Shown here: piece by piece, positions 336 through 21,909 of the stretch
Layout: the number at the start of each line of letters is the position of its first letter
How positions within the stretch are numbered: the first letter of the stretch is position 1
Source: Bacteroidota bacterium
GTDB taxonomy: Bacteria; Bacteroidota; Bacteroidia; Bacteroidales; CG2-30-32-10
DNA length: 64,000 bases
Reading direction: 5' to 3'
Assembly: GCA_013377115.1 (NCBI GenBank)
Contig: JACAAW010000004.1
Span: forward strand, 2,521-66,520
Notes under the pieces: model-generated
Databases searched by the model: none
Told to the model about the DNA's origin: nothing
What the model saw: only the letters and a program-made list of their open reading frames with translations
Translations under genes and position numbers: made by a program

Positions 336-2630
336 ATGCGAAAAAACGCTACTAATGTTATTACATTATTGACATTTATCAGTACATTTTTTATAGCTTG
401 TTTAATTTACGCAGAAAAAAATGGATTTAATTTTTGGAAAAAATCAGTAAAAAACCAAACAGAGTTAAACGCGCTACCGCATGGCACTTGCAATTCCTGC
501 CATATTAATCACACTGCTCCAGGAGGAGAACTAACCTCTGTTAATGGAAATGCTAATCTCTGTATTAGTTGTCATAACGCAGCCGGATCTGCAAGTACTT
601 TACCTTTTGCAAATGTTGATAAAGCAATTCCTGGAATTAGCGGCAATTCTCATAGTTGGGATAAAATTGGAGTAAACGCAATTTTCGAAACAAATACCCC
701 ATCTAATTCTGATATGTCTTCAAGAATGCCTGGCGGAAACATTATTTGTTCAACCTGCCATAACCAGCATTTACAAGACTTCCCTCCTTTCCTTCGTGCT
801 TCAAATTCAGGAGATGCGTTATGCAAAGAATGTCACTCCGCCAGAGATGTTGGAAATTATTTAACCAACACAACATCAAATAAAGGAAGTCATCCAGTTG
901 GCATCACCTATAACAATACTGATTCTAGATTTTTAATTTCACCTTTATCGCCAATGACATTGGTTAACTCAAAAATCGAATGTTCAAGTTGCCATAGTGT
1001 TCATTATGCAGCAACTAATGACGGAAATTTATTAAGAGCAACCAACAACGATGCCTTATGTGCTAATTGTCATACTTATGGAATGCATCATGGAATGTCG
1101 TGTTCTGCTTGTCATCAGACACACAATCCAAATAAAACAAATATTTTCATGGTTAAAGATAGTATACAGACACCATCAAGTGGAAAAGTTGCTGTTATTT
1201 TATCTTCTGAAACCGGTTCAAATTCTTATGCTGATGGAGATGCAAACTACAATGGAATATGCGAAGCTTGTCATACAACCACCGCTTATCATAGAAATGG
1301 AAGTTCTGGGAATCACTCACACAATACTGGAGCGAATTGCATTGGTTGTCATCCGCATAAAGATGCTTTTAGCGCTGGTGATTGTATTACTTGCCACGCA
1401 TTAGCTCAAGATAATGGAGATGGGATTCCAGTTGGAGGAAGAAGAGCAATAATTGGAGAATTTCCTGCCAGTAATGCCCACGCTCATTATGGTGCAGCGA
1501 TAAACGCGCAATCTTGCCAAGTTTGTCATGATATGTCTACCCACAAAAGTGGAATTGTCAAACTAATTGATGCAGATAATAGTTCAATCTATCAGTTTGT
1601 AAAACCTGAAAATTTAACTACTGATCCTGATGTTTCAAATTTCTGTATGAGTTGTCATGATGCAAATGGAGCAACGAGGTTAGCGACACCTTTAGATCCA
1701 TTTGGTAATGGAAATATTGCTCCAGATGTGAAATTAAAATTTCAAGGAACTTTACAATGGAATGAATGGTACGGCGATTTCTGTTTTGGAGATGAAGGCA
1801 CATTAAGAGCGGTAAATAGTCATCATGACATAAGCAATGCAGATCAAACATTTAGTGGTGCAAAAATTGAATGTTTAAATTGTCATGGTGCTCATATTTC
1901 ATCAGCAACATCAAAAATTGCAAATCCAAATAGCACCAATTCTGTTTGGGCTGGCACTTATAATGATTTCTGCTTAACATGTCACAGTGGAGGAACGGGA
2001 CCAACCACCCCTGGATTTCCTACTGGTGTAACAGGTCCAACGATTGCATTAAGAGGTTTAGAATCTTGTGGATATACTGCAGCACCTTGGTATGTTGACT
2101 ATATTTGGTCAAATAGTGCACATGGGTTAAATTCAAAACGACCTTGGACTGGATATTCTGGTGCGCCATCTTATAATATGTCATGCAAAGATTGCCACGA
2201 CCCTCATGGTTCTTACACTCCAACAAATACTGCTGGAAACCCATATATGATAAAAGATTATGTTGATGGCAGTTTGTTCGTGGATGACGGCGATCGTAAT
2301 ACTGGGCCATGGACAGGTCCGCCATGGACCACCTTTGGATTAAGCAGAGCTGTAAAAATCACTATTTCAGGAACAGATGTTAATTGGGGATCTCCGACAG
2401 GATTATGCAGTGTTTGTCATCCAAATTGGGAAAATGCATATGACTGGCACTCCTATTGTGGTGCATGTCAAACTTGCCATGGACATGGCCAAGCTTTTGG
2501 TGAAAATGACTGGGGTGGTGGTGGAAATTCCATACCTTGCGGTGGAAAAAGCACCCAATTAAAAATAATTGAATTAAGTAAGGAAAAAAGCAAAGTCAAA
2601 TTACATTCAAAATCTCTAGAAAAGAAATAA
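336..2630 (+). CDS. Large multiheme cytochrome c, 17 CxxCH motifs
   Basis: 17 CxxCH counted, many as CxxCHxxH...LCxxCH pairs; N-terminal signal/TM segment; Lys-rich C-terminal tail. Confidence 0.93.
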   Translation: MRKNATNVITLLTFISTFFIACLIYAEKNGFNFWKKSVKNQTELNALPHGTCNSCHINHTAPGGELTSVNGNANLCISCHNAAGSASTLPFANVDKAIPGISGNSHSWDKIGVNAIFETNTPSNSDMSSRMPGGNIICSTCHNQHLQDFPPFLRASNSGDALCKECHSARDVGNYLTNTTSNKGSHPVGITYNNTDSRFLISPLSPMTLVNSKIECSSCHSVHYAATNDGNLLRATNNDALCANCHTYGMHHGMSCSACHQTHNPNKTNIFMVKDSIQTPSSGKVAVILSSETGSNSYADGDANYNGICEACHTTTAYHRNGSSGNHSHNTGANCIGCHPHKDAFSAGDCITCHALAQDNGDGIPVGGRRAIIGEFPASNAHAHYGAAINAQSCQVCHDMSTHKSGIVKLIDADNSSIYQFVKPENLTTDPDVSNFCMSCHDANGATRLATPLDPFGNGNIAPDVKLKFQGTLQWNEWYGDFCFGDEGTLRAVNSHHDISNADQTFSGAKIECLNCHGAHISSATSKIANPNSTNSVWAGTYNDFCLTCHSGGTGPTTPGFPTGVTGPTIALRGLESCGYTAAPWYVDYIWSNSAHGLNSKRPWTGYSGAPSYNMSCKDCHDPHGSYTPTNTAGNPYMIKDYVDGSLFVDDGDRNTGPWTGPPWTTFGLSRAVKITISGTDVNWGSPTGLCSVCHPNWENAYDWHSYCGACQTCHGHGQAFGENDWGGGGNSIPCGGKSTQLKIIELSKEKSKVKLHSKSLEKK

Positions 2631-2688
2631 TTTTTATTTTTCCTAGCAATCTAATAGCACAATTTGGAAATTTTATTCTAAAATATAA

Positions 2689-2696
2689 TAATTTTG
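2689..2696 (+). promoter_or_regulatory. Candidate Bacteroidota -7 promoter box
   Basis: TAATTTTG matches TAnnTTTG; TTTG at 2663-2666 upstream. Confidence 0.4.
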
Positions 2697-2814
2697 GTGA
2701 AAAATTATTGTATTTTAGAATATTGTTATTATTTTTACAGGCTAAATTGAGCAAATATTTTAATTCAACATTAGAATTTGTTAAATAATTAACACCCTAT
2801 TGGGATACTATATA

Positions 2815-3867
2815 ATGAAATCGCTTTTCTCACGTAATATATATGCAATAAATTTGATAGTAATTGCTATTATGCAATTACAAAATATTGCTTATGCTCA
2901 AAATGATTTAGGCAAAGACAATTTTCAAAATGGTGATATTAATTATGTCAAATATATTAACCAATTCCCATCTATAGATAAAGGAAAATCTTCAAATTTT
3001 TTCGAAAAAGTTACTGATTTTATAATTGGAGAAAAAGAAACTCCATTATTAATCAAGCCTATGTCAGTAATTGCAATAAACCCTGATTCTTTTCAAATAT
3101 TAGATCAAGGAAATGGATTGGTATTTCAAATACAAAATCAAGAAAGTGAAATTCCAAAGTTTTTTAAAAAACGAAAAGACAAATTAACTTCATTGGTTGG
3201 TATTTGCGAGAACTCAACAAAAGATGTGTTAATAACCGATTCTAAACTCAATAAAATTTTCAAAATTAGTGCTGATAAAAAATCGATTACTATTCTTAAT
3301 GATTCATTAAAACTAAATCAACCTACAGGAATTTCTTTTTCAAATACAACAAAGGAAATTTGGGTAGTTGAAACTGGGGCACACCAGATTTCAATTTTAG
3401 ATGAAAATGGTAACTTGAAGAAAACTATTGGTAAACGAGGAACCCAAAATAGTGAATTTAATTTTCCAACTTATTTAAGTTTTGACAAAAAAGGAAATGC
3501 CTATGTTGTTGATGCCATGAATTTTAGAATTCAAATTTTTGACAAATCGGGTAATTTTGTTTCCACATTTGGAGAAATCGGTGATGCTACTGGCTATTTT
3601 TCAAGACCAAAAGGAATTGCAATCGATTCGACTGGAAACATCTACATTGTTGATGCTCTGTTTAATACAGTGCAAATTTTTGACAATACTGGAGCCTTTT
3701 TATATCAATTTGGCAAACAAGGTCAGAATAAAGAAGAATTTTGGATGCCAACAGGCATTTTTATTGATAAAAAAGATTATATATATGTGGCAGATAGTTA
3801 TAATGCCAGAGTTCAAATATTTCAACATGTTTATGAAAAAGGAAATGAAAAAAGCATTAAAAATTAG
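2815..3867 (+). CDS. NHL-repeat beta-propeller protein (secreted)
   Basis: Repeated F..P.GI..D..GN.YVVD...RIQIFD units; signal peptide from ATG 2815 (track start is TTG 2800). Confidence 0.9.
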   Translation: MKSLFSRNIYAINLIVIAIMQLQNIAYAQNDLGKDNFQNGDINYVKYINQFPSIDKGKSSNFFEKVTDFIIGEKETPLLIKPMSVIAINPDSFQILDQGNGLVFQIQNQESEIPKFFKKRKDKLTSLVGICENSTKDVLITDSKLNKIFKISADKKSITILNDSLKLNQPTGISFSNTTKEIWVVETGAHQISILDENGNLKKTIGKRGTQNSEFNFPTYLSFDKKGNAYVVDAMNFRIQIFDKSGNFVSTFGEIGDATGYFSRPKGIAIDSTGNIYIVDALFNTVQIFDNTGAFLYQFGKQGQNKEEFWMPTGIFIDKKDYIYVADSYNARVQIFQHVYEKGNEKSIKN

Positions 3868-5545
3868 TATTGGTATTTTATTGGTAAGTGTATCATTTTT
3901 CAGTAATTCACAATCAATAGTTACAACAAAGCACAATTTATCAGTTTCAGGGACTGGTAGCGTTAAAGCTGTAACAGAATCTGAAATTTGCAAGTTTTGT
4001 CATACACCTCATATGGGTAGTCCGGCAGCACCATTATGGAATAGAACAATATCTGGAGCATCTTATACTTTATACAACAGTTCCACGATGAATGCTATTC
4101 CTGGTCAGCCTGACGGATCTTCAATATTATGTTTGTCATGCCATGATGGAACTATTGCTTTGGGAAGCATTATGAGTTCAGTTACTCCGATTGCAATGAC
4201 TGGTACAATGCAAAGAGGAAATCTGACAACAGATTTATCAAATGACCATCCGATTTCCTTTGTTTATAATGCATCTTTGGCTAGTACTGACGGACAATTA
4301 AAAACTCCTCCATTATCAACAATTCCACTTGACAATAATTCAAGAGTTCAGTGCACATCTTGCCACGATTCACACAAAAATTTATACACAAAGTTTTTAA
4401 GAGCTAGTAATGAATCTTCAGCTTTTTGTTTTTTATGTCATGATAGAACATATTGGGCTTCATCGACTCACAGCTCCTCAACAAGTACATGGAACGGAAC
4501 TGGAACAAATCCTTGGGGACACATGGAATTTCCATATTCAAACGTTTCAAAAAATGCTTGTGAAAATTGCCATGCACCTCACAATGCACAAGGAAAAAAT
4601 CGATTGTTAAAATCCATTACAGAAGAAGGCAATTGTTTGGATTGTCACAATGGCAATGTAGCAGCTTCAACCAAAAACTTGGTGAATCAATTTGCAAAAA
4701 CCTACAAGCATAATGTTGCAGGTTATATTAATATTCACGATCCAAATGAATCAAATTCAGTAACAACCCAACATGTTGAATGTGTTGATTGCCACAACGC
4801 ACATGCCTCAAATGCCACTACGGCGTCAGCTCCAAATATTAATGGATCAATGATTGGTGTTAAAGGAATTAATCAATCAGGAGTTGCCATTACATCAGCA
4901 AACTATGAATATGAAATTTGTTATAAATGCCATGCAGGAAACACCTGGTCTCCAGCATCAGCGACTTCAAGAGTTATTTCTCAAAACAATGTACGTCTTG
5001 AATTCGCAACAACGAATCCTTCTGGACACCCAGTTGCAGGTGCAAGAAACATCAGTGAAATAACGACCAATTTAATATCTCCAAATACTGCATCTACTGT
5101 GATTTACTGTACAGCATGTCATGCAAGCGATGGAGCTAGCTCTCCAGCAGGCCCTCATGGATCAATCTACCCTCAAATATTAAAATTACAATACTTGAAA
5201 AATGATGGTGCATCCTCAGCAAATGGGACAACAGAGTCGGCATCAGCGTATGCCCTTTGTTACAGCTGTCATAATAGAGCCAATATTATTAATAATGTTA
5301 GCACCTTCCCTGAACATAAATTACATATTGTAGATCAAAGAACTCCCTGCAATACTTGTCATGATCCTCATGGGATTAGCAGTACTCAGGGAACCTCTGC
5401 TAACAATTCAAACCTTATCAACTTCAGATCAGGTGTTGTAACGCCTGCAGGAACCTTATTAAGGTTTGTGGATACTGGAGTTAGACATGGTTATTGTCAA
5501 TTGGTTTGTCATGGTCAAACTCATGCTGCAAGTATGTTCTATTAA
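3845..5545 (+). CDS. Multiheme cytochrome c (11 CxxCH + 1 CX3CH) with N-terminal OmcE-like tetraheme domain
   Basis: Start reassigned to ATG 3845 (MKKALKISIGILLV, signal peptide); 11 CxxCH plus terminal CQLVCH; first ~200 aa colinear with 5904-6536. Confidence 0.92.
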   Translation: MKKALKISIGILLVSVSFFSNSQSIVTTKHNLSVSGTGSVKAVTESEICKFCHTPHMGSPAAPLWNRTISGASYTLYNSSTMNAIPGQPDGSSILCLSCHDGTIALGSIMSSVTPIAMTGTMQRGNLTTDLSNDHPISFVYNASLASTDGQLKTPPLSTIPLDNNSRVQCTSCHDSHKNLYTKFLRASNESSAFCFLCHDRTYWASSTHSSSTSTWNGTGTNPWGHMEFPYSNVSKNACENCHAPHNAQGKNRLLKSITEEGNCLDCHNGNVAASTKNLVNQFAKTYKHNVAGYINIHDPNESNSVTTQHVECVDCHNAHASNATTASAPNINGSMIGVKGINQSGVAITSANYEYEICYKCHAGNTWSPASATSRVISQNNVRLEFATTNPSGHPVAGARNISEITTNLISPNTASTVIYCTACHASDGASSPAGPHGSIYPQILKLQYLKNDGASSANGTTESASAYALCYSCHNRANIINNVSTFPEHKLHIVDQRTPCNTCHDPHGISSTQGTSANNSNLINFRSGVVTPAGTLLRFVDTGVRHGYCQLVCHGQTHAASMFY

Positions 5546-5751
5546 TAAAAATTTCATCAAGTAATTAGCGCAAAATCAATTATGATAGCTAGTAAAAATC
5601 TATGCAAATTTTTGTTTTTTGCCAAAAAATACTAAAAAAATAATAAAGCTATAAAAAAACATATTTTCAAAATATCAGATTATAAATTTAAAAATCTAAT
5701 ATTCAACAATTTACACATTCTATTTATACATATTATAAATACGCATATTTG

Positions 5752-5782
5752 TTTGTTTTTTTAGAAAAGTGTTTTATTTTTG
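5752..5782 (+). promoter_or_regulatory. Bacteroidota housekeeping promoter for the OmcE-like gene
   Basis: TTTG (5752-5755), 19-nt spacer, TATTTTTG (5775-5782) fits the -33/-7 consensus. Confidence 0.6.
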
Positions 5783-5903
5783 GACTTTAATTATATAGGA
5801 TAAATTGCAAATAAGAAATACTATCAATAAATGTTAAAATTTTAACAATCTAAATAAAAACAATTAATTAAATAATTATTATCAACCAAAAAAAAGAAAC
5901 AAA

Positions 5904-6536
5904 ATGAAACTAAAAAATTTATTTTTTGCAGTAACGCTTGTATTAGCTTTTACTCAAATGAGCTTTGCTCAAACTATTGTGGGTTCTGCTCATGATTTTT
6001 CTTCTCAAGCTTGGAATACTACTGGAGAAATTTGTATCGTATGTCATACTCCTCATGGTGCCATCACAACTGTTAGTAATGCTCCTTTATGGAATCACCA
6101 AGTAACTGCAACAGCTGCATTTACTCTTTATTCAGGATCAACCTTTAATGGTGCATCCACAATTACTCAACCAGATGCTAGCTCAAAATTATGTTTAAGC
6201 TGTCATGATGGTACTGTTGCTCTTCAAAACTTCAGCGGTACAACAGGTGCTGGTACTACAATTAGTTCTTTCTATAATGTTGGAACTAACTTAGCAAACG
6301 ATCACCCAATTTCTTTTGATTACAATGCAGCTTTAGTAGCAGCTGACGGTGGTGGATTAAAAGATCCAACAACTGCTTTAGGTATTGGAACTCAAACTAT
6401 TCAAAACTCTATGTTATTTTCTAACAAAATGCAATGTGCTTCTTGTCACGATGTTCACAACAGTGCAGGTATTGCTTTCTTATTATTAAAATCTAATGCT
6501 GCAAGTGCACTTTGTTTAACTTGCCATAATAAATAA
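5904..6536 (+). CDS. Tetraheme cytochrome c, OmcE-like (candidate nanowire subunit)
   Basis: Signal peptide; 4 CxxCH; motifs AHDFS, ICIVCHTPH, PLWN, FTLY, CLSCHDG, LANDHP, CASCHDVH, LCLTCHNK follow Geobacter OmcE in order and spacing as I recall it. Confidence 0.85.
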   Translation: MKLKNLFFAVTLVLAFTQMSFAQTIVGSAHDFSSQAWNTTGEICIVCHTPHGAITTVSNAPLWNHQVTATAAFTLYSGSTFNGASTITQPDASSKLCLSCHDGTVALQNFSGTTGAGTTISSFYNVGTNLANDHPISFDYNAALVAADGGGLKDPTTALGIGTQTIQNSMLFSNKMQCASCHDVHNSAGIAFLLLKSNAASALCLTCHNK

Positions 6537-6563
6537 TCAAATATTTTTTTATATTTGTATGCT

Positions 6564-6594
6564 AAAAAAAGGGCGAGAATTTTTCGCCCTTTTT
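6564..6594 (+). terminator. Terminator/stabilising hairpin after the OmcE-like gene
   Basis: AAAAAGGGCGA-gaatttt-TCGCCCTTTTT. Confidence 0.75.
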
Positions 6595-6616
6595 AAATAA
6601 ATTTTGAAAAAATAAA

Positions 6617-7690
6617 ATGATGAATAAACTATATTATAATTTTCTTTTTATCGGAATTGCTTTAATTCTAACTTTCTCATCTTGTAATAAAAACGGTGTT
6701 CCGAAAAAAACAACAGATATTGTTATTTATCCTACCCCACCTGATACAGCTAGAATCCAATACCTAACTAGTATCAGTGATTCAAAAAATATTACTGGAA
6801 GACGAAATGCTTTTCTTAGATTTGTTTTAGGCGATTTTCAACCATATCCGTTGGTAAAACCATACGGAATTGCTGTTAAGAAAGGTAAAATATACATTTG
6901 TGATACTGGGTCCAATGGAATTACCATTATTGATTTAGCTAAAAAATCTTTAATCCCATTTTTCCCAAAAGGGAAAGGTCAATTAAAAGCCCCAATAAAT
7001 TGTTTCGTTGATGACAACGAGTATTTGTACGTTGCTGATGGCGAAAGACGTCAGGTTGTTGTTTTTGACAAAAAAGGTGAATATGTAAACGCATTTGGAG
7101 AAACAGAAAATTTTAAACCTACAGATGTTTTTGTAGTTAATGATAAAGTTTATGTTGTTAATTCCAAAAATAACAGAATAAATATTTATAAAAAAGGAAC
7201 TTTTGAATTACTATCTTTTTTCCCTGAGTCTGGACAAGGTAGTGAGGATTTTTTATATACTCCAGTTAATATTTATGTGAGCCCTGATAAAGTTTACGTA
7301 AGTGACATGGGAGACTTTAAAATAAAGAAATATACTCTTGAAGGAAAATATATTAACTCTGTTGGGAGTTATGGAAAAAATTTAGGCCAATTTGTTCGTC
7401 CAAAAGGAATTGCAGTTGATAAAGAAGAAAATCTTTTTGTTGTTGATGCAGGTTTTGAAAATACACAAATATTTGATAAACAAGATCGTTTATTAATGTA
7501 TTTTGGAGGTCCTTACAAAGCTCCTGGAGATATGTGGCTGCCAGCCAAAATTACACTTGACTATGAGAATCTTCAATATTTTCAAAAATATGTAGATCCA
7601 AGTTTTGAGCTAAAATATTTAATTTTCGTAACAAATCAATATGGTCCGGATAAAATTAGTGTATACGGAGCTGTTGGTCCAAAAAAATAA
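6617..7690 (+). CDS. NHL-repeat beta-propeller lipoprotein
   Basis: Lipobox LTFSS-C; NHL repeats (PYGIAV, PKGIAVDKEENLFVVD). Confidence 0.9.
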   Translation: MMNKLYYNFLFIGIALILTFSSCNKNGVPKKTTDIVIYPTPPDTARIQYLTSISDSKNITGRRNAFLRFVLGDFQPYPLVKPYGIAVKKGKIYICDTGSNGITIIDLAKKSLIPFFPKGKGQLKAPINCFVDDNEYLYVADGERRQVVVFDKKGEYVNAFGETENFKPTDVFVVNDKVYVVNSKNNRINIYKKGTFELLSFFPESGQGSEDFLYTPVNIYVSPDKVYVSDMGDFKIKKYTLEGKYINSVGSYGKNLGQFVRPKGIAVDKEENLFVVDAGFENTQIFDKQDRLLMYFGGPYKAPGDMWLPAKITLDYENLQYFQKYVDPSFELKYLIFVTNQYGPDKISVYGAVGPKK

Positions 7691-7700
7691 TTCATTTTAA

Positions 7701-8273
7701 ATGTTCAATAAAGTAAGATATCTCGTCTCCCTAATAACGATAGTAATGATTACTCTTATTATTGGGTGTTCTCCAAAAAGTAATTATAAATTACTTTCAA
7801 CAATGTTTGATGGGGTTCCGGATCCAAATAAAGTTGAATCTACCACCGGAGTAAAATCATCGGATAGTTTAAACGGCCAAAGTTTATCAAAAAAGAACAC
7901 TTCTGTGTCAAAAGTTATTCATCCACCTTATAAAGATAAAGGCTGTTCTAACTGTCATGAAAAAATAGATAATGTACCTTCCAGTAAATTAATAAAACCA
8001 CAATTAGAATTATGTTATTCTTGTCACGAAGATTTTTCTAAAAAGTTCACTTGGGTTCATGGGCCTGTTGCGGCTGGAAGTTGTACAAAATGTCATAGCC
8101 CACATGCTTCTGATTTCAAAAAATTACTATTAAAAGAAGGTCAGGCTTTATGCTTTACTTGTCATGATTCTAAAGATGTAATTAAAAATGAAGTTCACAA
8201 AGAAATTGGACAAACAAATTGTACAGAATGTCATAATCCTCATGGCGGAAGTGATAAAACTATTTTAAGATAA
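7701..8273 (+). CDS. Pentaheme cytochrome c lipoprotein (doubled-CXXCH type)
   Basis: Lipobox LIIG-C; FDGVP motif; 5 CxxCH (CSNCH, CYSCH, CTKCH, CFTCH, CTECH). Confidence 0.9.
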   Translation: MFNKVRYLVSLITIVMITLIIGCSPKSNYKLLSTMFDGVPDPNKVESTTGVKSSDSLNGQSLSKKNTSVSKVIHPPYKDKGCSNCHEKIDNVPSSKLIKPQLELCYSCHEDFSKKFTWVHGPVAAGSCTKCHSPHASDFKKLLLKEGQALCFTCHDSKDVIKNEVHKEIGQTNCTECHNPHGGSDKTILR

Positions 8274-8277
8274 CATT

Positions 8278-10245
8278 ATGAAGTATTATTTAAAAATATT
8301 TGTCGTAATTTATTTCATTCTTTTTGCCTCAATAGAATGTTTTTCGCAATATTCGACAGAAACTGTTCCATTCTTCAAACTTACATCATTAAATGGTGAA
8401 ATAAAGTTGAAAGGTCTTTATCGAGATCAAACTACTTATACCTATGGTTTAAAAAACACCCAAAAAAGCTCATTTTTATACGGAGGAATTATGGTGAAAA
8501 CACAAAGTTATTTGTGGACACCGAATTTCTTAGCTCTTGAAATCGACGGTGAATTCAATCCAGAAAAAAGGGAGGAAAAATATCTGATTATTCCAAATCA
8601 AGCTGAAGTAAATACCATGAGAAATATCCATATCAAAGGGACTTTCTTTCAGCAAAAGAAACTCAATTTAGGCTCTTATTTCAATTATGATGAAAACTAT
8701 AGCAGTAGAGAAAATTTGTCTAACTTGAGAACAAAAGGAAAAAGTTATGGAGCATTTTTAAATTATAGCAACAAATTTTTACCTTTTACGCTTAACTATA
8801 ATCAAAGTAATTTTATTCAGAAAGAAATTCAAACTGATAGAAATTTTATTTCAAATTCAACAGAAGTTGTTGGAAAATTCACCAAGTCCTTTTCAGGTAA
8901 AGATCGCCATGAACTTACAATTTCTCATAATGAATTTGATAGAAAAGACGCGGATTTCCTAAATATTAATAACAAAACAAATAGCGCTTATTTATCTGAT
9001 AATGTTTTCTTCGATAAGAAACAAAATTATTATTTTAATTCATTTATTTCTGCAATAGATCAAACTGGTTTTGATACTTACAGAAGGTACCAAGCAAATG
9101 AAAATTTCAATTTTAAACTTCCAAGAAAATTTAGTGTAATTGCTAATTACAGCTTTAACAGAAATGAAAGATTATTGCAAACTTTAAATCAACATAATGC
9201 AAATCTAACATTTGGAAAGAAATTTTACGAAAGTTTATATACTGGTGTTTTTTATGAATATAACAATGCTTCTCATACTTCCTATAAAGAGGAAATTCAT
9301 AAAGCCGGCATCGATTTAAATTACACTAAAAAACTTCCTACTAAAGGTTTATTAACTTTATCATATAGATATTACAGACAATTCCAAAACCACACAAGCG
9401 GAGATATTTTCTTAAATGTTATTAGAGAAGAATATACTTTAGCAGACGGACAATTTGTTTTATTAACAAAACCTTATGTTACACCAGGAACTGTTGTAGT
9501 TACTGATATTACAGGAACGATTATCTATCAGGAAAATTTAGATTATATTTTAATTAATCAAACAAATAATTTCACTGAAATTAAACGTATTCCTGGTGGT
9601 CTAATCCCAAACAATTCTATTGTTTACGTTGATTATATTGCAAAACAACCAGGAGCATATAACTTTGATGCTAGTAATCAAAACTTTGGTGCAAGCTTGA
9701 TGCTATTTAATAGACTCGTTGAAGTTTATTATAGATATTCAAGTCAGGATTACTTAACGATAAACCAAACCGAATATCTAACCTTAAATTATTTTCATCA
9801 AAATGTAGTTGGATTAAGAGCAGAGTACAAATTCGCGAGCGCAGGTGCCGAATATGATTATTACAATAGCAGTATTATCCCTTATAAATCAATGAGATAT
9901 TTTGCAGGACTTCAAGGCAATATTAAACAAAAATTTGCTTATTCATTAATCGGAAATTTACGTAACTACGAAATGATTAACGAGAATTTAACCCAAAGAT
10001 ATTCTGATGTTACAGGTTCAATAGCTTATTATATTAAAACAAAAAATAAAATCAAATTGGATGTAGGTTATATGAATCAAGTTGGGCAGGGAATAAATTT
10101 AGATTTGATAACTGCAAAAACGGAATTTACTACTTTCTACAGAAAACTATATTTTACTCTTGGGCTTGAATTTTATAAACGAACTTATCAAGGCGAAGAT
10201 TTAGATTTCAAAGGTGGATACGTTCAAATTTCAAGAAAATTTTAA
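8278..10245 (+). CDS. Predicted outer-membrane beta-barrel (porin of a porin-cytochrome conduit)
   Basis: Signal peptide; alternating aromatic/hydrophobic beta-strand pattern; C-terminal Phe (QISRKF); flanked by multiheme cytochrome genes. Confidence 0.75.
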   Translation: MKYYLKIFVVIYFILFASIECFSQYSTETVPFFKLTSLNGEIKLKGLYRDQTTYTYGLKNTQKSSFLYGGIMVKTQSYLWTPNFLALEIDGEFNPEKREEKYLIIPNQAEVNTMRNIHIKGTFFQQKKLNLGSYFNYDENYSSRENLSNLRTKGKSYGAFLNYSNKFLPFTLNYNQSNFIQKEIQTDRNFISNSTEVVGKFTKSFSGKDRHELTISHNEFDRKDADFLNINNKTNSAYLSDNVFFDKKQNYYFNSFISAIDQTGFDTYRRYQANENFNFKLPRKFSVIANYSFNRNERLLQTLNQHNANLTFGKKFYESLYTGVFYEYNNASHTSYKEEIHKAGIDLNYTKKLPTKGLLTLSYRYYRQFQNHTSGDIFLNVIREEYTLADGQFVLLTKPYVTPGTVVVTDITGTIIYQENLDYILINQTNNFTEIKRIPGGLIPNNSIVYVDYIAKQPGAYNFDASNQNFGASLMLFNRLVEVYYRYSSQDYLTINQTEYLTLNYFHQNVVGLRAEYKFASAGAEYDYYNSSIIPYKSMRYFAGLQGNIKQKFAYSLIGNLRNYEMINENLTQRYSDVTGSIAYYIKTKNKIKLDVGYMNQVGQGINLDLITAKTEFTTFYRKLYFTLGLEFYKRTYQGEDLDFKGGYVQISRKF

Positions 10246-10259
10246 TTTATTATTAACTC

Positions 10260-11129
10260 ATGATAGGATTTCAATTTAAGCTATTAATTTGGATTTTAGG
10301 ATTCAACTATTCTGTTGCAAACCAAGGTGATTTCAAAGTAGGAAAATGCTTGGATTGCCACGATGACAAGTTAAAACAAGCTGTTGTTCACCCTGTGGCT
10401 GAAGGTTGCGACAATTGCCATGTTGCAACAGGAAAAGAACATCCTGGAAGTGACAAAGGTTTTACTTTATCCCAAAAATTACCTGATTTATGCATTACTT
10501 GTCATCCTGATGCTATGGATGCCACAAAATCTCCTTTTTCGCATAAAGCACTTACTGAAAAAAAATCATGCGTTAATTGCCATTCACCTCATTCAACAAC
10601 CGAAAAAAAATTACTTCTAAAAGACGAAAAAACACTTTGTTTAAGTTGTCATAATAAATCAATTACCAGCGGCACGAAAAAGTATTCTAACATTAAACTT
10701 ATTGTAGAAAAAAGCAAATATGTTCATGCTGCAATTGAAAGTGGTTGTATTAGCTGTCATACTCCTCATGGATCAAAAACCGCTCAATTATTAAAAAATA
10801 ATTTCCCTGAAGGAAATTATGCCGATTCAAAAAAGGATAGCTATTCGATTTGTTTTAGCTGTCATGAACCAGGTTTATTAGAACTGGAAAAATCAACAGT
10901 TGCTACTAGCTTCAGAAATGGTGATAAAAACCTACACTTTATCCATTTAAAAGGACCTAAAGGCAGAAGTTGTAATTTATGCCACAATATGCATGGATCA
11001 AACAATGAGCATTTAATTGACGATTTTGTGAATTTTGGAAATTACAAATTGCCAATTAATTACAAACCTGAAAGTACAGGCGGTTCTTGTGCTCCAGGAT
11101 GTCATTCTGAGAAGAAATACGTTCGATAA
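10260..11129 (+). CDS. Periplasmic-type multiheme cytochrome c (8 CxxCH + 1 CX3CH)
   Basis: 8 CxxCH plus terminal CAPGCH; CxxCHxPH...LCxxCH pairs; N-terminal signal-like segment. Confidence 0.9.
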   Translation: MIGFQFKLLIWILGFNYSVANQGDFKVGKCLDCHDDKLKQAVVHPVAEGCDNCHVATGKEHPGSDKGFTLSQKLPDLCITCHPDAMDATKSPFSHKALTEKKSCVNCHSPHSTTEKKLLLKDEKTLCLSCHNKSITSGTKKYSNIKLIVEKSKYVHAAIESGCISCHTPHGSKTAQLLKNNFPEGNYADSKKDSYSICFSCHEPGLLELEKSTVATSFRNGDKNLHFIHLKGPKGRSCNLCHNMHGSNNEHLIDDFVNFGNYKLPINYKPESTGGSCAPGCHSEKKYVR

Positions 11130-11184: not shown

Positions 11185-11646
11185 TTACCCCTTTTCTTTA
11201 AAGTTTTTCCAGTATTCATTTCCATAACTGCAAAAGACTTCCTCACCTGCCAATATCTTTCTTTTTGCCACAATACAAACTTTTCCGTTTTCATTTAATG
11301 TAATCTTCGAATTGGCTTTAAATTTTGATTTCACAATACCTAGAGCATCATTTGCAAATTTTGCAAAGCATTTTACGTTCATGGAATCCATAATTGTACC
11401 GTCAGGCAAATTAATAAAATATCCATCTTCTCCTCTACTTGCTCTGGCATATGATTCCAAATCATTTAATATCTCGCCTTTAAACAAAGTAATTATTTCA
11501 TCCTTATATATCGGAATCATTGTAAATAAACCTTTGCCAGAACCATCAATTTGCGATTCGTTCACAAATAGATAATCGCTTTCTTTTGCTTCAATTTTAT
11601 AAGTAATTGAATTCGAAAACTTTTTTAAAGAAGGCGTATTTTTCAT
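11185..11646 (-). CDS. SET-domain protein (lysine methyltransferase family)
   Basis: GSGKGLF, FAKFAND and AKRKILAGEEVFCSYG..YW correspond to the SET motifs. Confidence 0.85.
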   Translation of the reverse strand: MKNTPSLKKFSNSITYKIEAKESDYLFVNESQIDGSGKGLFTMIPIYKDEIITLFKGEILNDLESYARASRGEDGYFINLPDGTIMDSMNVKCFAKFANDALGIVKSKFKANSKITLNENGKVCIVAKRKILAGEEVFCSYGNEYWKNFKEKG

Positions 11647-12910: not shown

Positions 12911-15900
12911 ATGAAAAAAATTTGGAATTTACTCACCTCATCAGCGCTTACTCTAATATTATTATTACTTTTTGCAATAGCAATTGGCGTTGCCACTTTT
13001 ATTGAAGATAAATTTGACACAATTACTGCCCAAACTTTAATTTACAAATCAAAATGGATGGAAATCTTATTGATTTTATTGGCTGTTAATTTTATTGGCC
13101 ATATTAACAGATACAAATTACTTAGTTATAAGAAATTAACTGGATTTATTTTTCATTTCGCTTTTGTATTGCTTATTGTAGGCGCAGGAGTTACCAGATA
13201 TAATGGATTTGAAGGTACCATGCACATCAGAGAAGGACAAACTTCAAGTGTTATTTACACTTCTAATGGATTTTTGCAAATAACCGCAAATGAAAATGGT
13301 AAAGAATACAAGAAAGATTATGAATTAGATTTAAGCCCATTCCTAAACAATTCCTTTAGTACAGAATTGAAAATTGAAAATAAAGGGTCTATTGATTTTG
13401 TTTATAAAAATTATATAAAGAATGCAGTTGAAGTTATTGAGGAAAACGCAGCCGGTGGCTCAAATATTATTGAACTATCCTTTGCTGTTGAAAACAATTT
13501 GCAAAAAATTTATTTAAAAAATGGCGAAGTAAAGGAAATTGGAAATGTTGCAGTTGCATACAATAACAATACTAGAAAAGATGCCATTAATATCACTGAT
13601 GATAAAAATGGCCTAAAATATTCTGCTCCTTTTGGCACTATAATTTCAAGCATGACCGAAGCCAAAACAGATACTGTTGCCAAAGATTCAACTGCCGCTT
13701 TTGTGGAGAATTATTTATATAAATCAGAGACCTTTATTTTCTCGTTTTCAAAATTTTATAGAAATGCAATCACAAAATTAAAACCTGCTGAGGAAGGTCA
13801 AGAAGGAATTGATGCTCTTTTATTAGATGTAAGCTATAACGGCGTTTCAAAAGAAATCACCGTTTTTGGTGGAGCAGCTTACTTACCTAATTTTAAAGAA
13901 GAAACAGTAAACGGAATGAAGTTTAAAATAGCTTTTGGAAATAAAGAAATTCCATTGCCTTTTTCAATTCAATTAAACAAATTTGTACTAGAAAGATATC
14001 CTGGATCAATGAGTCCTTCTTCATTCGCAAGCGAAGTTACTTTAGTTGATTCTGAGAAAAATATTAATGAGCCAAGAAGAATTTTTATGAATAATGTTTT
14101 AGATCATCGTGGTTTTAGATTTTTTCAATCTTCTTATGATACTGACCAAAAAGGAACCATCCTTTCTGTAAATCATGATTTTTGGGGTACCTGGATTTCG
14201 TATTTCGGTTATTTCCTTTTAACAATAGGATTTATCGTTACTTTATTTAATAAAAATTCCAGATTTGCCGCCTTGAGCGAAAATATTAAGAAGATTCGTG
14301 AAAAAAGAAAAGCCAGTGCTTTGACAGTTCTTTTTATTCTAGGATTTTCAGCATTTGGATTTTCACAAAACCCAAATACTGGAGGAAGAGCGGTTTCAAA
14401 GGAACAAGCTGATAAATTTGGTCATTTAATTGTTCAGACTTTTGACGGCCGATTTGAACCAATGCATACCATGGCTTATGATGTAATGCATAAAATTTCC
14501 AGAATGGATAATTTTACAGTTCAGGGAAAAGGAGAATTAGATGCTGTTCAAGTATTTATGGATATGATCCTTGATCAGGAATTTTGGAAATCACAAAAAA
14601 TGATTTATGTGAGAGAAAAATCTGTTCAGGACATTATTGGTGCAACTGATAAATATGCAGCTTTTAATGATTTTCTAGTGGATGGCAACAAATACAAACT
14701 TGCGGAATACGCAGAAGTTGCTTTCAGAAAAAAACAATCAGAGCAAAATACTTTTGATAAAGAAATTATTCGTGTTGATGAACGCGTAAATATTTGCATG
14801 ATGGCATTTCAAGGAAGTATGTTGAAAATATTCCCAGCTCAAAATTCCGAAACAAATCAGTGGGTATCTTGGGGAGATTCTTTGGCAAACAGGCCTATTA
14901 CTGGCGTTTTATCCGTAATAAATGAAGATCTTCAACTTAAACAATTCAATTTTTCAAATATTTTACAATTGTACTTCCAGAGAATTGCAGAAGGAAATGC
15001 TGATGGCAATTATACTGAAGCCGAAAAAGTTCTAAAATCAATTGAAACTATTCAAAAAAGTAGTCCTGTTGCTAATGCTCTACCAACAAAATCGAGAATT
15101 GACTTTGAAATTTATTATAACAAAGCCAAGATTTTCGAAAACCTAAGAAATGTTTATGGAATCTTAAGTTTAATTCTGTTAATCCTTGCTTTTGTTGAAA
15201 ATTTCAAAGCAAAGAAAAGCAAAATCCTTAGCATTGTTCTTAAAGTATTTATCGGAATTTTAGGTCTTGCTTTCATTTACCATACCTATGGAATGGGCTT
15301 AAGATGGTATCTATCTGGTCATGCACCCTGGAGCAACGGTTATGAAGCCTTATTACTCGTTGCTTGGGGAGGTTTACTTGCAGGATTCTATTTTGTAAAA
15401 TATTCAAAAATAACCCTGGCTGCCACAGCAGTGTTGGCTTTCTCAATTTTAATGACTGCTGGTCATAGTAGTTACGACCCACAACTCACAAATTTACAAC
15501 CAGTTTTAAAATCATATTGGTTAATCATTCACGTTGCTGCAATAACAATTAGTTATGGATTTTTAGGATTGGGTTTCATTTTAGGATTAATAAATATGTT
15601 TTTATATATTCTTAAAACCAAAAAATCAACCGAGCGTATTGATTTACTTATCGGCGAACTCACTTACATCAATGAAATGAATTTATCTATAGGAGTTGCT
15701 TTAGCCACTTTAGGAACTTTTCTTGGTGGTGTTTGGGCCAACGAATCATGGGGAAGATATTGGGGATGGGATGCAAAAGAAACCTGGGCCTTGGTGATAG
15801 TTATCGTTTACGCAATTGTACTTCATTTTAGATTAGTACCGAAACTAAAAAGCACTTTTGTTTTCAATGCTGCTTCTATTGCCAGTTTCGGAACTGTAAT

Positions 15901-16066
15901 AATGACCTTCGTTGGAGTTAATTATTATTTATCGAAAGGAATGCATAGTTATGCCGCTGGCGATACACCAGTTTTCCCAATTTGGGCATGGATTACGATA
16001 TTTTCAGTAATACTTTTGATGGTAGTTGCCGGAATTAGAGAAAAGATGTCTCAGAAGAATAAATAG
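12911..16066 (+). CDS. ccsA: Fused system II cytochrome c synthase CcsBA (ResB-ResC/NrfI-type)
   Basis: N-terminal TM helices, large periplasmic ResB-like region, GHAPW, W..IHV, and the WWD motif WANESWGRYWGWDAKETW. Confidence 0.93.
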   Translation: MKKIWNLLTSSALTLILLLLFAIAIGVATFIEDKFDTITAQTLIYKSKWMEILLILLAVNFIGHINRYKLLSYKKLTGFIFHFAFVLLIVGAGVTRYNGFEGTMHIREGQTSSVIYTSNGFLQITANENGKEYKKDYELDLSPFLNNSFSTELKIENKGSIDFVYKNYIKNAVEVIEENAAGGSNIIELSFAVENNLQKIYLKNGEVKEIGNVAVAYNNNTRKDAINITDDKNGLKYSAPFGTIISSMTEAKTDTVAKDSTAAFVENYLYKSETFIFSFSKFYRNAITKLKPAEEGQEGIDALLLDVSYNGVSKEITVFGGAAYLPNFKEETVNGMKFKIAFGNKEIPLPFSIQLNKFVLERYPGSMSPSSFASEVTLVDSEKNINEPRRIFMNNVLDHRGFRFFQSSYDTDQKGTILSVNHDFWGTWISYFGYFLLTIGFIVTLFNKNSRFAALSENIKKIREKRKASALTVLFILGFSAFGFSQNPNTGGRAVSKEQADKFGHLIVQTFDGRFEPMHTMAYDVMHKISRMDNFTVQGKGELDAVQVFMDMILDQEFWKSQKMIYVREKSVQDIIGATDKYAAFNDFLVDGNKYKLAEYAEVAFRKKQSEQNTFDKEIIRVDERVNICMMAFQGSMLKIFPAQNSETNQWVSWGDSLANRPITGVLSVINEDLQLKQFNFSNILQLYFQRIAEGNADGNYTEAEKVLKSIETIQKSSPVANALPTKSRIDFEIYYNKAKIFENLRNVYGILSLILLILAFVENFKAKKSKILSIVLKVFIGILGLAFIYHTYGMGLRWYLSGHAPWSNGYEALLLVAWGGLLAGFYFVKYSKITLAATAVLAFSILMTAGHSSYDPQLTNLQPVLKSYWLIIHVAAITISYGFLGLGFILGLINMFLYILKTKKSTERIDLLIGELTYINEMNLSIGVALATLGTFLGGVWANESWGRYWGWDAKETWALVIVIVYAIVLHFRLVPKLKSTFVFNAASIASFGTVIMTFVGVNYYLSKGMHSYAAGDTPVFPIWAWITIFSVILLMVVAGIREKMSQKNK

Positions 16067-16542: not shown

Positions 16543-16555
16543 AAGGAAAATCTTG

Positions 16556-17584
16556 ATGAATGAAAAAACAGCGGTCTTATTAATCAATGTTGGCACACCA
16601 AAATCTGCTTCTGTTAAAGATGTTAAGAAATATTTAAAACAATTTCTTGGGGATGGCAGCGTCATTGAAATGCCTGCAATTTTAAGGTATATTTTAGTGA
16701 ATTTCATTATTGTTCCTTTTCGGGCAAAAAAATCGGCTGCAAAATATCAGGAAATTTGGACAAAAGACGGCTCTCCTCTCCTTTTGAATAGTATTGAATT
16801 TCAAAAGAAACTTCAGAAGTATTTTGGGGATCAGTTAACAATATTTCTTGCCATGAGATATGGAAATCCAAGTATTGAAAGAGAACTTGAAAAAATAAAA
16901 ACAGGAAATTTCAAACAAATCTTTATTGTTCCTTTGTATCCTCAATATTCAACCTCAACCACTGAATCGTCCATTATTGAAACGAAATCAAAAATTTCGC
17001 TGTGGGATAACAAACCCAACATTTTGGAATTAAAATATTTTTGGAACGAACCACTTTATATTCAATCATTTGCGAGTCAGATAAAAAAATATGACTTCAA
17101 TAATTTCGATCATATCTTATTCAGTTTTCATGGTTTGCCCTTAAAACAAGTCCAGAATGCCCATCCTGAAAAAAATTGTACTGAATTAGATTGTGAAAAT
17201 ATCATGAATGAAGAAAATTCACTTTGCTATCAATCAGCTTGTTATCGAACAGTCGAATTGTTAGTCAAAGAATTGGAAATCGAAAAAGAATTTTTTTCAA
17301 CTACCTTTCAATCTCGACTTACAAAAAACTGGCTTTCGCCATTTACTGACGAGAAACTAAAAGAGCTTGTCTCAATTGGTAAAAAAAGAGTTTTGATTAT
17401 CTGTCCATCTTTTGTTTCGGATTGCTTAGAAACCCTTCACGAAATTGAAATAGAATACCAACATTTTTTCAAAGAAATTGGAGGCGAATCACTCACCATG
17501 GTTGAAGCATTGAACAGCAATGATATTTGGGTGGAAAATTTTGGAAAAATAATTTCCGGAAAAATAAATGAACATTTGAACTAA
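16556..17584 (+). CDS. hemH: Ferrochelatase
   Basis: LLINVGTP, GSPL, AMRYGNP, PLYPQYS, FSFHGLP, FQSR, FVSDCLETLHEI motifs; ATG at 16556. Confidence 0.95.
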   Translation: MNEKTAVLLINVGTPKSASVKDVKKYLKQFLGDGSVIEMPAILRYILVNFIIVPFRAKKSAAKYQEIWTKDGSPLLLNSIEFQKKLQKYFGDQLTIFLAMRYGNPSIERELEKIKTGNFKQIFIVPLYPQYSTSTTESSIIETKSKISLWDNKPNILELKYFWNEPLYIQSFASQIKKYDFNNFDHILFSFHGLPLKQVQNAHPEKNCTELDCENIMNEENSLCYQSACYRTVELLVKELEIEKEFFSTTFQSRLTKNWLSPFTDEKLKELVSIGKKRVLIICPSFVSDCLETLHEIEIEYQHFFKEIGGESLTMVEALNSNDIWVENFGKIISGKINEHLN

Positions 17585-18560: not shown

Positions 18561-20744
18561 ATGTTAAAAAAAATACTCTTTTCTTTTGGGTTCATGGCAA
18601 TAATCAATTGTACTATTGGCCAAATAACTTCGTGTGGATTCGACGAAATAAGATTAAGTAATCCGGAAAATCTTCAAAAAGAAATAAAATTAAATAAGGT
18701 TCTATATCAAAAAGCTTTGGAATCTGCCACTTTAACTAAAGATGCTAAAATTATTCTCAATATTCCCGTTGTTGTGCACCTCATTCACCAAAATGGACCT
18801 GAAAATCTTGCTGATGCCTCAATAGTTTCTGCTATCAATCAGATGAACCAGCGCTTCCAAAATTCTGCTCCATACTTTGATGCAACGGGTAATGCTGTTA
18901 ATATCCAATTTTGCCTTGCTTCAATTGACCCTCAAGGAAACCCAACAACAGGAATTACTCGGAATTATTCTCAACTTTCGTATTTATGGGCCAGTGATGA
19001 TATCCAAATGAAAGACCTTAACCGCTGGGATCCTTTTTATTACTATAATATTTGGTCGGTTCATAGTATTTATGGATTTAATATTTCAGTTGCTGGGTAT
19101 TCTTCTTTACCTTCTAACATTGGTGAAAGCATTGATGGCGTTGTTATTCTATATAGTGCTCTCAATAGCGACGTTCTAACTCATGAAACCGGTCATTATT
19201 TGGGTTTATATCATACTTTTCAAGGAGGTTGTAATAATTTTAATTGCCTGCTTGATGGAGATATGGTTTGTGATACACCACCAGATACTTCCACTTCAGT
19301 ATGCATGGGAAATTCTTGTTATTCCGATATGTATGATACCACAGGGTTCAGCCCCTTTACTTCTGATGTTAATGAATTACCAAATTATATGGACTATACG
19401 CCTTGTGCACTTTCTTTTTCCCAAGGACAAAGTGACAGAATGGTAAACTCTCTTACAGCAATTCGAACTTTATTGCTGCAATCTGCAGGATGTGGTTTCA
19501 GCGGTGGAGCGGCTCCTGTCGCAAATTTAGGTTATTCCATTTCATCTTGTAACGATGGTTCGGTGAGTTTTATTGATACACTTTCAACAAATTACACCAC
19601 GGTTAACTGGGATTTTAATAATGATGGAATTTTTGATTCTTTTAATCATAACCCAGTTTATTCTTTTCCTGCCACAGGAAATTATACAGTAAAATTAGTT
19701 ATTGCAGGAGCAGGTGGTGTTGACACTTCTTATCAAACTATCTTTGTTCAAAAATCCCCATCACTTTACTATCCAATTACACTTCTTGGTAGCATTTTTA
19801 CAAATTCAAACGGAGAATTAACTTCCTGTCCGGATTACTCAAATAATCTCACTTCGGCTCCTGGACTTTCTTATTTATGGTCGACTGGAGCAACAACACA
19901 AACCATTTCGTTTAATCCTGTTTCAACCTATACAATTACTTTAACAATGATTGATAGTGCTGGATTAACATGGACCAATCAATTTTGTCATCCTTTAATT
20001 GTAAATGTGCATCCTTCGCCTCCCACAGCGAACATTTATTCTAATGATCCACTCACTATTTGCGATGGTGATTTGGTAACAATCCATTCTGGATTTTCAA
20101 CAACCGGAAGTTATACTTTTCTCTGGTATCAAAATTCACAAATAACCAGTTCAAATGATACCATTTATAATGCAGTTGGTTTTTCTCCATCAGCCTATTA
20201 CCAGCTAATTATTGGTGATACTAATGGTTGTTATAGCTGGAGCAATTATTTATATATAAATTCGTATTCTCCACCATTGGCGCAATCACTCACACAAAAT
20301 GGGTTTGAACTGACTTCTGGATGGGGTGGCGGAAATCAGTGGTATTTAAATGGTTCAGTGATTCCCGGCGCAACAGGAACAGTCTATAGTGTTACTCAGG
20401 ATGGTTGTTACCAAGTGGAATGGTTTTTTAGTTTTGCACCAAATTGCACCACGATGTCTGATTCAATTTGCTATACGAGTACAGAGATAAACAATATTAA
20501 GGCTGAAATCAACAATGCTGTTATTTATCCAGTTCCTTCCAGCAATTTTGCAACCCTTTTAACAAGCTCCAAATTAGTTGGTTCAGAATATTATATTACC
20601 GATGCATTAGGTAGAATATTTGTAAAATCAATGGTTAAATCAGAAACTTCAATTATCAATATTTCTGATTTTGCAAGTGGGATATATTTTTTCAATTTGA
20701 ACTTTAACGATGCTCTTATTGTAAGAAAAATTTTAAAAGAATAA
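18561..20744 (+). CDS. M43 (pappalysin-like) zinc metalloprotease with PKD domain and T9SS type-A CTD
   Basis: HETGHYLGLYH zinc motif, NYMDY Met-turn, PKD (WDFNNDG), CTD (IYPVPS...GIYF). Confidence 0.9.
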   Translation: MLKKILFSFGFMAIINCTIGQITSCGFDEIRLSNPENLQKEIKLNKVLYQKALESATLTKDAKIILNIPVVVHLIHQNGPENLADASIVSAINQMNQRFQNSAPYFDATGNAVNIQFCLASIDPQGNPTTGITRNYSQLSYLWASDDIQMKDLNRWDPFYYYNIWSVHSIYGFNISVAGYSSLPSNIGESIDGVVILYSALNSDVLTHETGHYLGLYHTFQGGCNNFNCLLDGDMVCDTPPDTSTSVCMGNSCYSDMYDTTGFSPFTSDVNELPNYMDYTPCALSFSQGQSDRMVNSLTAIRTLLLQSAGCGFSGGAAPVANLGYSISSCNDGSVSFIDTLSTNYTTVNWDFNNDGIFDSFNHNPVYSFPATGNYTVKLVIAGAGGVDTSYQTIFVQKSPSLYYPITLLGSIFTNSNGELTSCPDYSNNLTSAPGLSYLWSTGATTQTISFNPVSTYTITLTMIDSAGLTWTNQFCHPLIVNVHPSPPTANIYSNDPLTICDGDLVTIHSGFSTTGSYTFLWYQNSQITSSNDTIYNAVGFSPSAYYQLIIGDTNGCYSWSNYLYINSYSPPLAQSLTQNGFELTSGWGGGNQWYLNGSVIPGATGTVYSVTQDGCYQVEWFFSFAPNCTTMSDSICYTSTEINNIKAEINNAVIYPVPSSNFATLLTSSKLVGSEYYITDALGRIFVKSMVKSETSIINISDFASGIYFFNLNFNDALIVRKILKE

Positions 20745-20771
20745 ATCCTTGTATATTGGGAAATAATCACT

Positions 20772-20779
20772 TATATTTG
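20772..20779 (+). promoter_or_regulatory. -7 promoter box
   Basis: TATATTTG upstream of ATG 20806. Confidence 0.5.
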
Positions 20780-20805
20780 ATTGCTTAAATTTAAAAAACT
20801 TGCAT

Positions 20806-21870: not shown

Positions 21871-21909
21871 GAATAAAGATTCAATTAGTATTAATTTAAA
21901 GAAAATATT

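Follow-up and report, generated by a model that had tools for sequence, protein, structure and literature searches.

The tetrahaem gene and its surroundings

The stretch of DNA analysed here, 64,000 nucleotides long and hereafter called the window, comes from a Bacteroidota bacterium and carries near its start a cluster of co-oriented genes, running from 336 to 11129 on the + strand, for multihaem cytochromes, NHL-repeat beta-propellers and a predicted outer-membrane barrel. Among them lies a stand-alone gene for a tetrahaem c-type cytochrome, the subject of this study. The cluster, the signals around the tetrahaem gene and two genes beside the cluster are as follows.

336..2630, + strand: 17-haem cytochrome at the head of the cluster, poorly conserved (2 of 52 related loci)
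2815..3867, + strand: NHL-repeat beta-propeller (NHL match 2.5e-23), whose last 23 nt overlap the 12-haem gene
3845..5545, + strand: 12-haem cytochrome, with 11 CxxCH motifs and CQLVCH, present in 52 of 52 long loci
5775..5782, + strand: Bacteroidota-type -7 promoter-like motif TATTTTTG (TAnnTTTG), with TTTG 23-27 nt upstream, a consensus match only
5904..6536, + strand: OmcE-family tetrahaem c-type cytochrome, candidate major filament subunit, homologous to 7TFS and 9YUQ with the ligand set kept
5904..5969, + strand: Sec type-I signal peptide, residues 1-22, with cleavage after SFA as read from the sequence
6566..6594, + strand: intrinsic-terminator hairpin with a GGGCGA/TCGCCC core, an A-tract before and a T-tract after, 30 nt past the stop
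6617..7690, + strand: NHL-repeat beta-propeller lipoprotein (lipobox LTFSSC), in all 52 long loci immediately 3' of the OmcE-like gene
7701..8273, + strand: 5-haem lipoprotein cytochrome, doubled-CXXCH, DmsE/MtrA-like
8278..10245, + strand: large outer-membrane beta-barrel of 655 aa, predicted (AF2, Foldseek), with a C-terminal Phe
10260..11129, + strand: 9-haem periplasmic-type cytochrome, with 8 CxxCH motifs and CAPGCH
12911..16066, + strand: fused ResB-CcsA (CcsBA; system II cytochrome c maturation) of 1051 aa, beside the cytochrome cluster
16553..17584, + strand: ferrochelatase, beside the cytochrome cluster

The tetrahaem open reading frame (5904..6536, +) starts with ATG and is intact over 210 aa, and the strand opposite is full of stops. 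The protein has 8 Cys and 9 His in total, with exactly four CxxCH sites (C44/C47/H48, C97/C100/H101, C178/C181/H182 and C204/C207/H208) and five His outside these motifs, namely H30 (AHDFS), H51 (TPH), H65 (WNH), H134 (NDHP) and H185 (DVH). Its N-terminus, MKLKNLFFAVTLVLAFTQMSFA followed by QT, has MKLK, a hydrophobic core and a junction of SFA with QT, and was judged to be a Sec type-I signal peptide by eye rather than with a predictor. The length, the signal peptide, the four motifs and the five named His had been listed in the first-pass annotation of this DNA, made from the letters alone, and all are present. Inspection of the sequence found neither a lipobox Cys nor a T9SS C-terminal domain, and the only Pfam or NCBIfam match was a C-terminal 'doubled CXXCH' unit. 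The last CxxCH lies exactly 2 residues before the C-terminus in 147 of 151 stand-alone family members, including this one; because the chain stops there, haem 4 would form the extreme C-terminal tip of the protein, which fits head-to-tail stacking.

The source genome is a 4.0-Mb metagenome-assembled genome (MAG), 94% complete and in 296 contigs, and the sequence is present in freshwater and lake-water metagenomes; the runs that contain the tetrahaem gene are DNA metagenomes from these waters only, with no RNA runs among them. We found nothing to suggest that the ORF arose by chance, is a pseudogene or reflects an error of assembly. The intact frame and closed opposite strand, the more than 7,600 protein clusters homologous to the protein at E <= 1e-3, the recovery of the same sequence in independent freshwater metagenome runs and the match in GC content between the gene and its flanks (uniform at ~32%) exclude such readings for practical purposes.

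Other features of the region deserve mention. Just upstream of the window in the same genome (contig C231:1023-1493) is a multihaem ORF, with an open frame of 640 aa and weak similarity to the tetrahaem protein (E 4e-7), so that the cluster extends beyond base 1. Between the cytochrome cluster and the CcsBA gene, a small protein of 153 aa with a SET domain (11185-11646, - strand; Pfam SET 8e-10), unusual in bacteria, has no evident link to the cytochromes. Each of three consecutive genes at 18561-23253 (+) encodes a protein that ends in a T9SS C-terminal sorting domain, and one of these proteins is an M43 peptidase that also has a PKD domain; together with the uniform GC content, these genes mark the host as a member of the Bacteroidota. 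No cytochrome of the cluster in the window has such a domain, and the cytochromes must therefore exit the cell by another route. Further along, at 47550-53909 and 55125-63998 (+), are very long ORFs of 2119 aa and more than 2958 aa, the latter running off the end of the window, with a GC content of 38-42% compared with ~32%.

Homology to OmcE and the predicted haem ligands

A phmmer search of 177,635 PDB sequences with the tetrahaem protein as query gave just two significant matches, both to OmcE filaments and both full length. The best was to OmcE of Desulfuromonas soudanensis (PDB 9YUQ, 9yuq_N; E 2e-28, 39% identity, query residues 5-210 against 4-218) and the other to that of Geobacter sulfurreducens (PDB 7TFS, 7tfs_A; E 1.7e-26, 35% identity, 8-210 against 9-232); the two solved OmcEs are 41% identical to one another. 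The pairwise alignment that had been proposed as a check of the first-pass annotation thus shows the protein to be colinear with the OmcE filament subunits end to end, at 35% and 39% identity. The eight ordered motifs that the annotation had ascribed to OmcE are all found in the alignment with 7TFS, in the same order and far beyond chance (7TFS first, tetrahaem protein second):

KHDLS, AHDFS
ICVFCHTPH, ICIVCHTPH
PLWN, PLWN
FTLY, FTLY
CMSCHDG, CLSCHDG
LSNDHP, LANDHP
CGSCHKVH, CASCHDVH
LCLGCHKK, LCLTCHNK

The earlier claim of a stand-alone OmcE-family member is therefore borne out by full-length homology to both solved OmcE nanowires, and on this comparison of sequences we regard the protein as an established, bona fide member of the family. 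Like OmcE of G. sulfurreducens (GSU0618, 7TFS), it is a tetrahaem protein made as a precursor of ~210-230 aa with a Sec signal peptide, colinear over its whole length, and it shares the same four CxxCH motifs, the same four distal His and a C-terminus two residues past haem motif 4. An AF2 model built from a 58-sequence alignment was of low confidence (pLDDT 61.6), and Foldseek against the PDB with that model gave no useful match.

The family tree resolves into three clades, consisting of the Geobacter-type stand-alone OmcEs, which include both solved filaments, the N-terminal modules of 11-12-haem proteins, and the FCB-type stand-alone tetrahaems. The tetrahaem protein falls in the last of these, apart from both solved OmcEs, and the Geobacter-type OmcEs group with the 11-12-haem N-modules with weak support. 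It thus adds to a known family a representative of a distinct clade and of a phylum missing from the list in the paper by which the clusters were defined.

In an alignment of 238 family members from 160 loci, the four CxxCH motifs and H30, H51, H134 and H185 are conserved in 100% of the module and Geobacter-type groups and in 92-100% of the 103 stand-alone FCB-locus sequences, and all 16 haem-attachment and ligand positions of the tetrahaem protein align with both solved OmcEs. From this conservation we infer that its four haems would be bis-His coordinated through H30, H51, H134 and H185. The resulting ligand set is that reported for OmcE homologues, 'four CxxCH and four other His' (Petersen et al., mBio 2026, PMC13712944). 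The first-pass annotation had counted five spare His as available for bis-His ligation; the four just named hold family-wide, but H65 gives way to Arg or Lys in most relatives, the two filament formers included. A His at this position, just after PLWN, is a signature of the clade (94 of the 103 stand-alone FCB-locus sequences). Both solved filaments have Arg here, the fused modules have Arg or Lys, and any of Arg, Lys and His may occur elsewhere. Since the position tolerates Arg and Lys, H65 is unlikely, as judged from the alignment, to be an axial ligand, and the simplest reading would be that residue 65 is a haem-propionate partner.

The ninth His also bears on the question of whether the protein polymerises at all. 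It may instead be a monomer with the OmcE fold, in the periplasm or on the surface, that shuttles electrons from an inner-membrane quinol oxidase to the barrel-cytochrome conduit or to extracellular partners. With nine His for four haems and H65 near-invariant in the clade (94/103), a self-satisfied monomer is formally possible; this point, and the position of the protein in a clade distinct from that of the solved filaments, count against a nanowire and in favour of a monomeric carrier. The authors of the OmcE paper likewise describe OmcE-like tetrahaems as 'widely distributed' and note that not all need be nanowires (PMC13712944). Nevertheless, the idea that the ninth His marks a self-capped monomer is made unlikely by the Arg or Lys at position 65 of the filament formers, which, with the same residues in most relatives, argues for conservation of a basic side chain rather than of iron ligation. 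The architecture of the filament formers, with four distal His and a chain that ends at haem 4, is moreover strictly kept. On balance we consider a monomeric carrier unlikely.

In both OmcE and OmcS, one haem is coordinated between subunits, and in OmcE, according to a review, it is haem 2 that takes a His from the neighbouring subunit. The His of the NDHP motif of OmcE coordinates an 'internal' haem (Petersen et al., PMC13712944). If the same holds for H134 of the tetrahaem protein, H30, H51 or H185 are left as bridging candidates. In the OmcS structure described by Wang et al. in 2019, the residue that bridges the subunits is reportedly His16. Residue 16 of 6EF8, with the numbering checked in the OmcS sequence, is the second His of C9-E-G-C12-H13-T-M-H16, and its counterpart in the OmcE family is H51, within the CIVCHTPH of the tetrahaem protein. 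By this analogy, H51 would be at least as likely as H30 to be the inter-subunit ligand. The N-terminal H30, put forward for this role in the first-pass annotation, is a possible candidate but no better than even, because the bridging His16 of OmcS corresponds to H51. OmcS of G. sulfurreducens (6EF8) is a homopolymeric filament in which a His from the neighbour completes one haem per subunit, and its N-terminal FHSGG...CEGCHTMH resembles the AHDFS...CIVCHTPH of the tetrahaem protein; unlike the latter, it has six haems and 407 aa, and overall sequence homology between the two is not detectable. OmcS is an analogue and not a family member.

Helper genes, expression layout and the 12-haem protein

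The cluster occurs in at least 52 genomes of the FCB group. Among 52 related loci of at least 15 kb, the order NHL, 12-haem, OmcE-like, NHL, 5-haem, barrel, 9-haem is kept in 46-52. The propellers of the cluster are homologous (E 1e-30 to 1e-40; 31-36% identity for that at 2815..3867) to those encoded beside Geobacter omcE, although other Geobacter NHL paralogues score equally. The 9-haem cytochrome shares 31-39% identity, with E values down to 1e-51, with the cytochrome encoded upstream of Geobacter omcE. Nanowire-competent omcE genes have been recognised by the presence nearby of a large beta-barrel and a beta-propeller lipoprotein (Petersen et al. 2026, PMC13712944), and the minimal omcE cluster of Desulfuromonadia consists of two multihaem cytochromes, two propeller lipoproteins, OmcE and a large barrel, adjoining resB/ccsB (PMC13712944). 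Near the tetrahaem gene we find two NHL propellers, the downstream one with a lipobox, an AF2-predicted barrel of ~28-30 strands, and multihaem cytochromes accompanied by cytochrome-maturation genes. The agreement of the cluster with the published description of nanowire-competent omcE clusters is thus established, with a barrel that has no detectable homology to that of Geobacter. Taken with membership of the family and the 16 kept haem positions, this makes 'candidate conductive filament subunit', the label given to the protein in the earlier reading, a fair one.

As at the omcE locus of G. sulfurreducens, the neighbours of the tetrahaem gene encode NHL propellers, multihaem cytochromes, a large barrel and ResB/CcsB-type maturation proteins. 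The locus differs in that the tetrahaem protein belongs to another clade and has His rather than Arg after PLWN, that no glycosyltransferase genes lie beside the cluster, that the barrel is not detectably homologous, that a 12-haem protein with an OmcE module is added and that the host is a Bacteroidota with a T9SS. The minimal cluster of D. soudanensis WTL (9YUQ, PMC13712944) has the same parts list, likewise without glycosylation genes, but in a different gene order; the loops by which D. soudanensis OmcE forms bundles are not conserved even among its close homologues (PMC13712944). The CcsBA and ferrochelatase genes beside the cytochromes echo the resB/ccsB flank of the Desulfuromonadia omcE clusters (compare the layout of locus L082).

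AF2 models the 655-aa protein with confidence (pLDDT 91.7) as an all-beta barrel; in the model there are ~28-30 strands, and a small beta domain is inserted at about residues 390-445. Foldseek with this model matched only large outer-membrane barrels, the best being MtrB (6r2q_B) at a TM of 0.37. The protein has no Pfam or NCBIfam family match, and a profile-profile comparison (hhalign) with the barrel of the Geobacter omcE cluster detected no homology (probability 4%). Its gene is flanked by those of the 5-haem and 9-haem cytochromes, as in ordinary porin-cytochrome conduits such as Shewanella MtrCAB (6R2Q) and Geobacter OmaB-OmbB-OmcB, with which the 5-haem, barrel, 9-haem triad shares the cytochrome-barrel-cytochrome layout. 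Unlike the barrels of known conduits, this one lacks a family match and has ~28-30 strands and an inserted domain, and the tetrahaem protein is not of a type known as a conduit component. A barrel with no homology by hhalign to that of the Geobacter omcE cluster, and placed between two MtrA/DmsE-like cytochromes as in porin-cytochrome complexes, is a further point against the nanowire and for the monomeric carrier.

The expression layout points the other way. The tetrahaem gene is preceded by an AT-rich non-coding gap of 358 nt, which contains the promoter-like motif, and a long upstream gap is conserved in related loci (median 418 nt); the remaining genes of the cluster either overlap or have only 4-14 nt between them. 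A scan for the sigma-70 consensus gave 53 sites compared with 68.5 expected. The terminator hairpin has a dG of -20.6 kcal/mol (z -5.1; none of 200 shuffles as good) and was missed by the terminator scan because its A- and T-tracts pair; a hairpin of <= -10 kcal/mol is found at the same place in 65 of 70 related loci (median -18.4, against -8.9 for shuffles). This combination of the gene's own promoter-like site with a terminator is suggestive of the layout expected for a subunit made in large excess over its machinery, and a gene set up for strong expression of its own and closed by a conserved terminator is more in keeping with a bulk structural subunit than with a carrier made in stoichiometric amounts.

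The gene upstream of the tetrahaem gene in the same cluster encodes a further OmcE module, which is complete within the first ~207 residues of its 12-haem product, is 42% identical to the tetrahaem protein and matches 7TFS with an E of 3e-30. Among 64 homologues the 12-haem proteins have 16 conserved non-motif His for 12 haems, with an invariant His ten residues past motif 4. An OmcE-like unit with an extra His has been proposed as the 'anchor' of the filament, and none is encoded in the omcE operons of Desulfuromonadia (Petersen et al., PMC13712944). The 12-haem protein has the property of the proposed anchor and may thus be a candidate filament anchor or terminator, so that this cluster, unlike those operons without a tip or anchor candidate (PMC13712944), has one. 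The tetrahaem gene is always accompanied by one in which such a module is joined to a long haem wire, which would also be hard to explain if the tetrahaem protein were a free shuttle. The same observations could be accommodated by a short, finite hetero-complex in which the 12-haem protein binds one or a few tetrahaem proteins at its OmcE module, through the interface common to both, so that its surface haem wire grows by 4-8 haems, with no micrometre filaments: the two proteins have the same module at 42% identity and always co-occur, and the surplus conserved His of the 12-haem protein could cap an interface. A fixed 1:1 complex, however, would need no separate promoter and terminator for one of its partners, and the stand-alone homologues from Geobacter and Desulfuromonas assemble into long homopolymers. 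We therefore think a finite complex quite improbable.

Distribution and possible role of the OmcE-like protein

Among genomes of the same family or order, just 2 of 41 have the tetrahaem gene, a patchy distribution that makes it likely that the gene has been gained or lost within the order. A recent horizontal transfer was weighed and set aside, the GC content of the gene being equal to that of its flanks. In species-representative genomes, at least 526-570 stretches encode a relative of the protein, and most of the carriers, among the matches listed, belong to Bacteroidota, Ignavibacteria, Calditrichota, KSB1 and Gemmatimonadota, while Proteobacteria and Desulfobacterota are also represented. 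In each of two such scans the 80 best loci are all from MAGs, and a cultured carrier sought among them was not found. OmcE homologues have been listed in five phyla, with Bacteroidota and the FCB group not among them (Petersen et al., PMC13712944), and our full-text searches linking OmcE with words beginning Bacteroid- or Ignavibacteri- found no report, within a coverage that leaves out most subscription journals, so that an earlier mention is possible. Putative conduits and surface multihaem cytochromes for which there was no explanation have been described in lake Bacteroidetes MAGs (He et al. 2019). Elsewhere in the genome studied here are candidate quinol oxidases, one of the NapC/NirT type and one of the NrfD type.

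We judge it slightly more probable than the contrary that the tetrahaem protein polymerises, is secreted and conducts as the subunit of an OmcE-type nanowire, a reading suggested by homology and genomic context: the full-length similarity to OmcE, the ligand set, the C-terminus, the cluster, the expression layout and the candidate anchor. According to this nanowire model, the protein would be exported by Sec, furnished with its four bis-His haems by the CcsBA encoded nearby and helped across the outer membrane by the co-encoded barrel and propellers. It would then polymerise head to tail like OmcE, with haem 4 stacking on haem 1 of the next subunit and one distal His, either H51 or H30, completing a haem of the neighbouring subunit, to give a continuous insulated haem chain that takes respiratory electrons away from the cell. 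The 12-haem protein, with its OmcE module and spare conserved His, would be the likely adaptor that joins or terminates the filament and links it to the barrel-cytochrome conduit, and the gene's own promoter-like site and conserved terminator would provide the high ratio of subunit to machinery expected for a major structural subunit.

A bolder proposal, which we hold only tentatively and regard as doubtful in its entirety, is that Bacteroidota and other FCB bacteria (Ignavibacteria, Calditrichota, KSB1 and Gemmatimonadota) possess a self-contained and distinct OmcE nanowire machine. The tetrahaem protein would be its shaft, and the 12-haem protein, with its OmcE module, its surplus invariant His (e.g. 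H209) and its 8-haem extension, would be the anchor or terminator that plugs the filament into the ~30-strand barrel-cytochrome conduit, while the clade-specific His65 might occupy the open haem site as a stand-in ligand until the filament assembles. If this were true, a large share of the uncultured Bacteroidota of freshwater and sediment would be capable of long-range extracellular electron transfer.

Cytochrome nanowires have been solved from very few organisms, namely Geobacter, one Desulfuromonas and two archaea, and to our knowledge Bacteroidota are not known for extracellular electron transfer. Our analysis shows that the gene for an OmcE-type subunit and a matching helper cluster occur in freshwater Bacteroidota and that the FCB-type cluster is widespread. 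How nanowires are secreted, anchored and terminated is stated to be an open question in the field (Petersen et al., PMC13712944), and the FCB-type cluster encodes, within the operon, a candidate for the missing anchor. If the tetrahaem protein does polymerise, long-range electron transfer would have a wider ecological reach, for example in the respiration of iron and humic substances in lakes, and the cluster would offer a compact, glycosylation-free system for studies of nanowire assembly.
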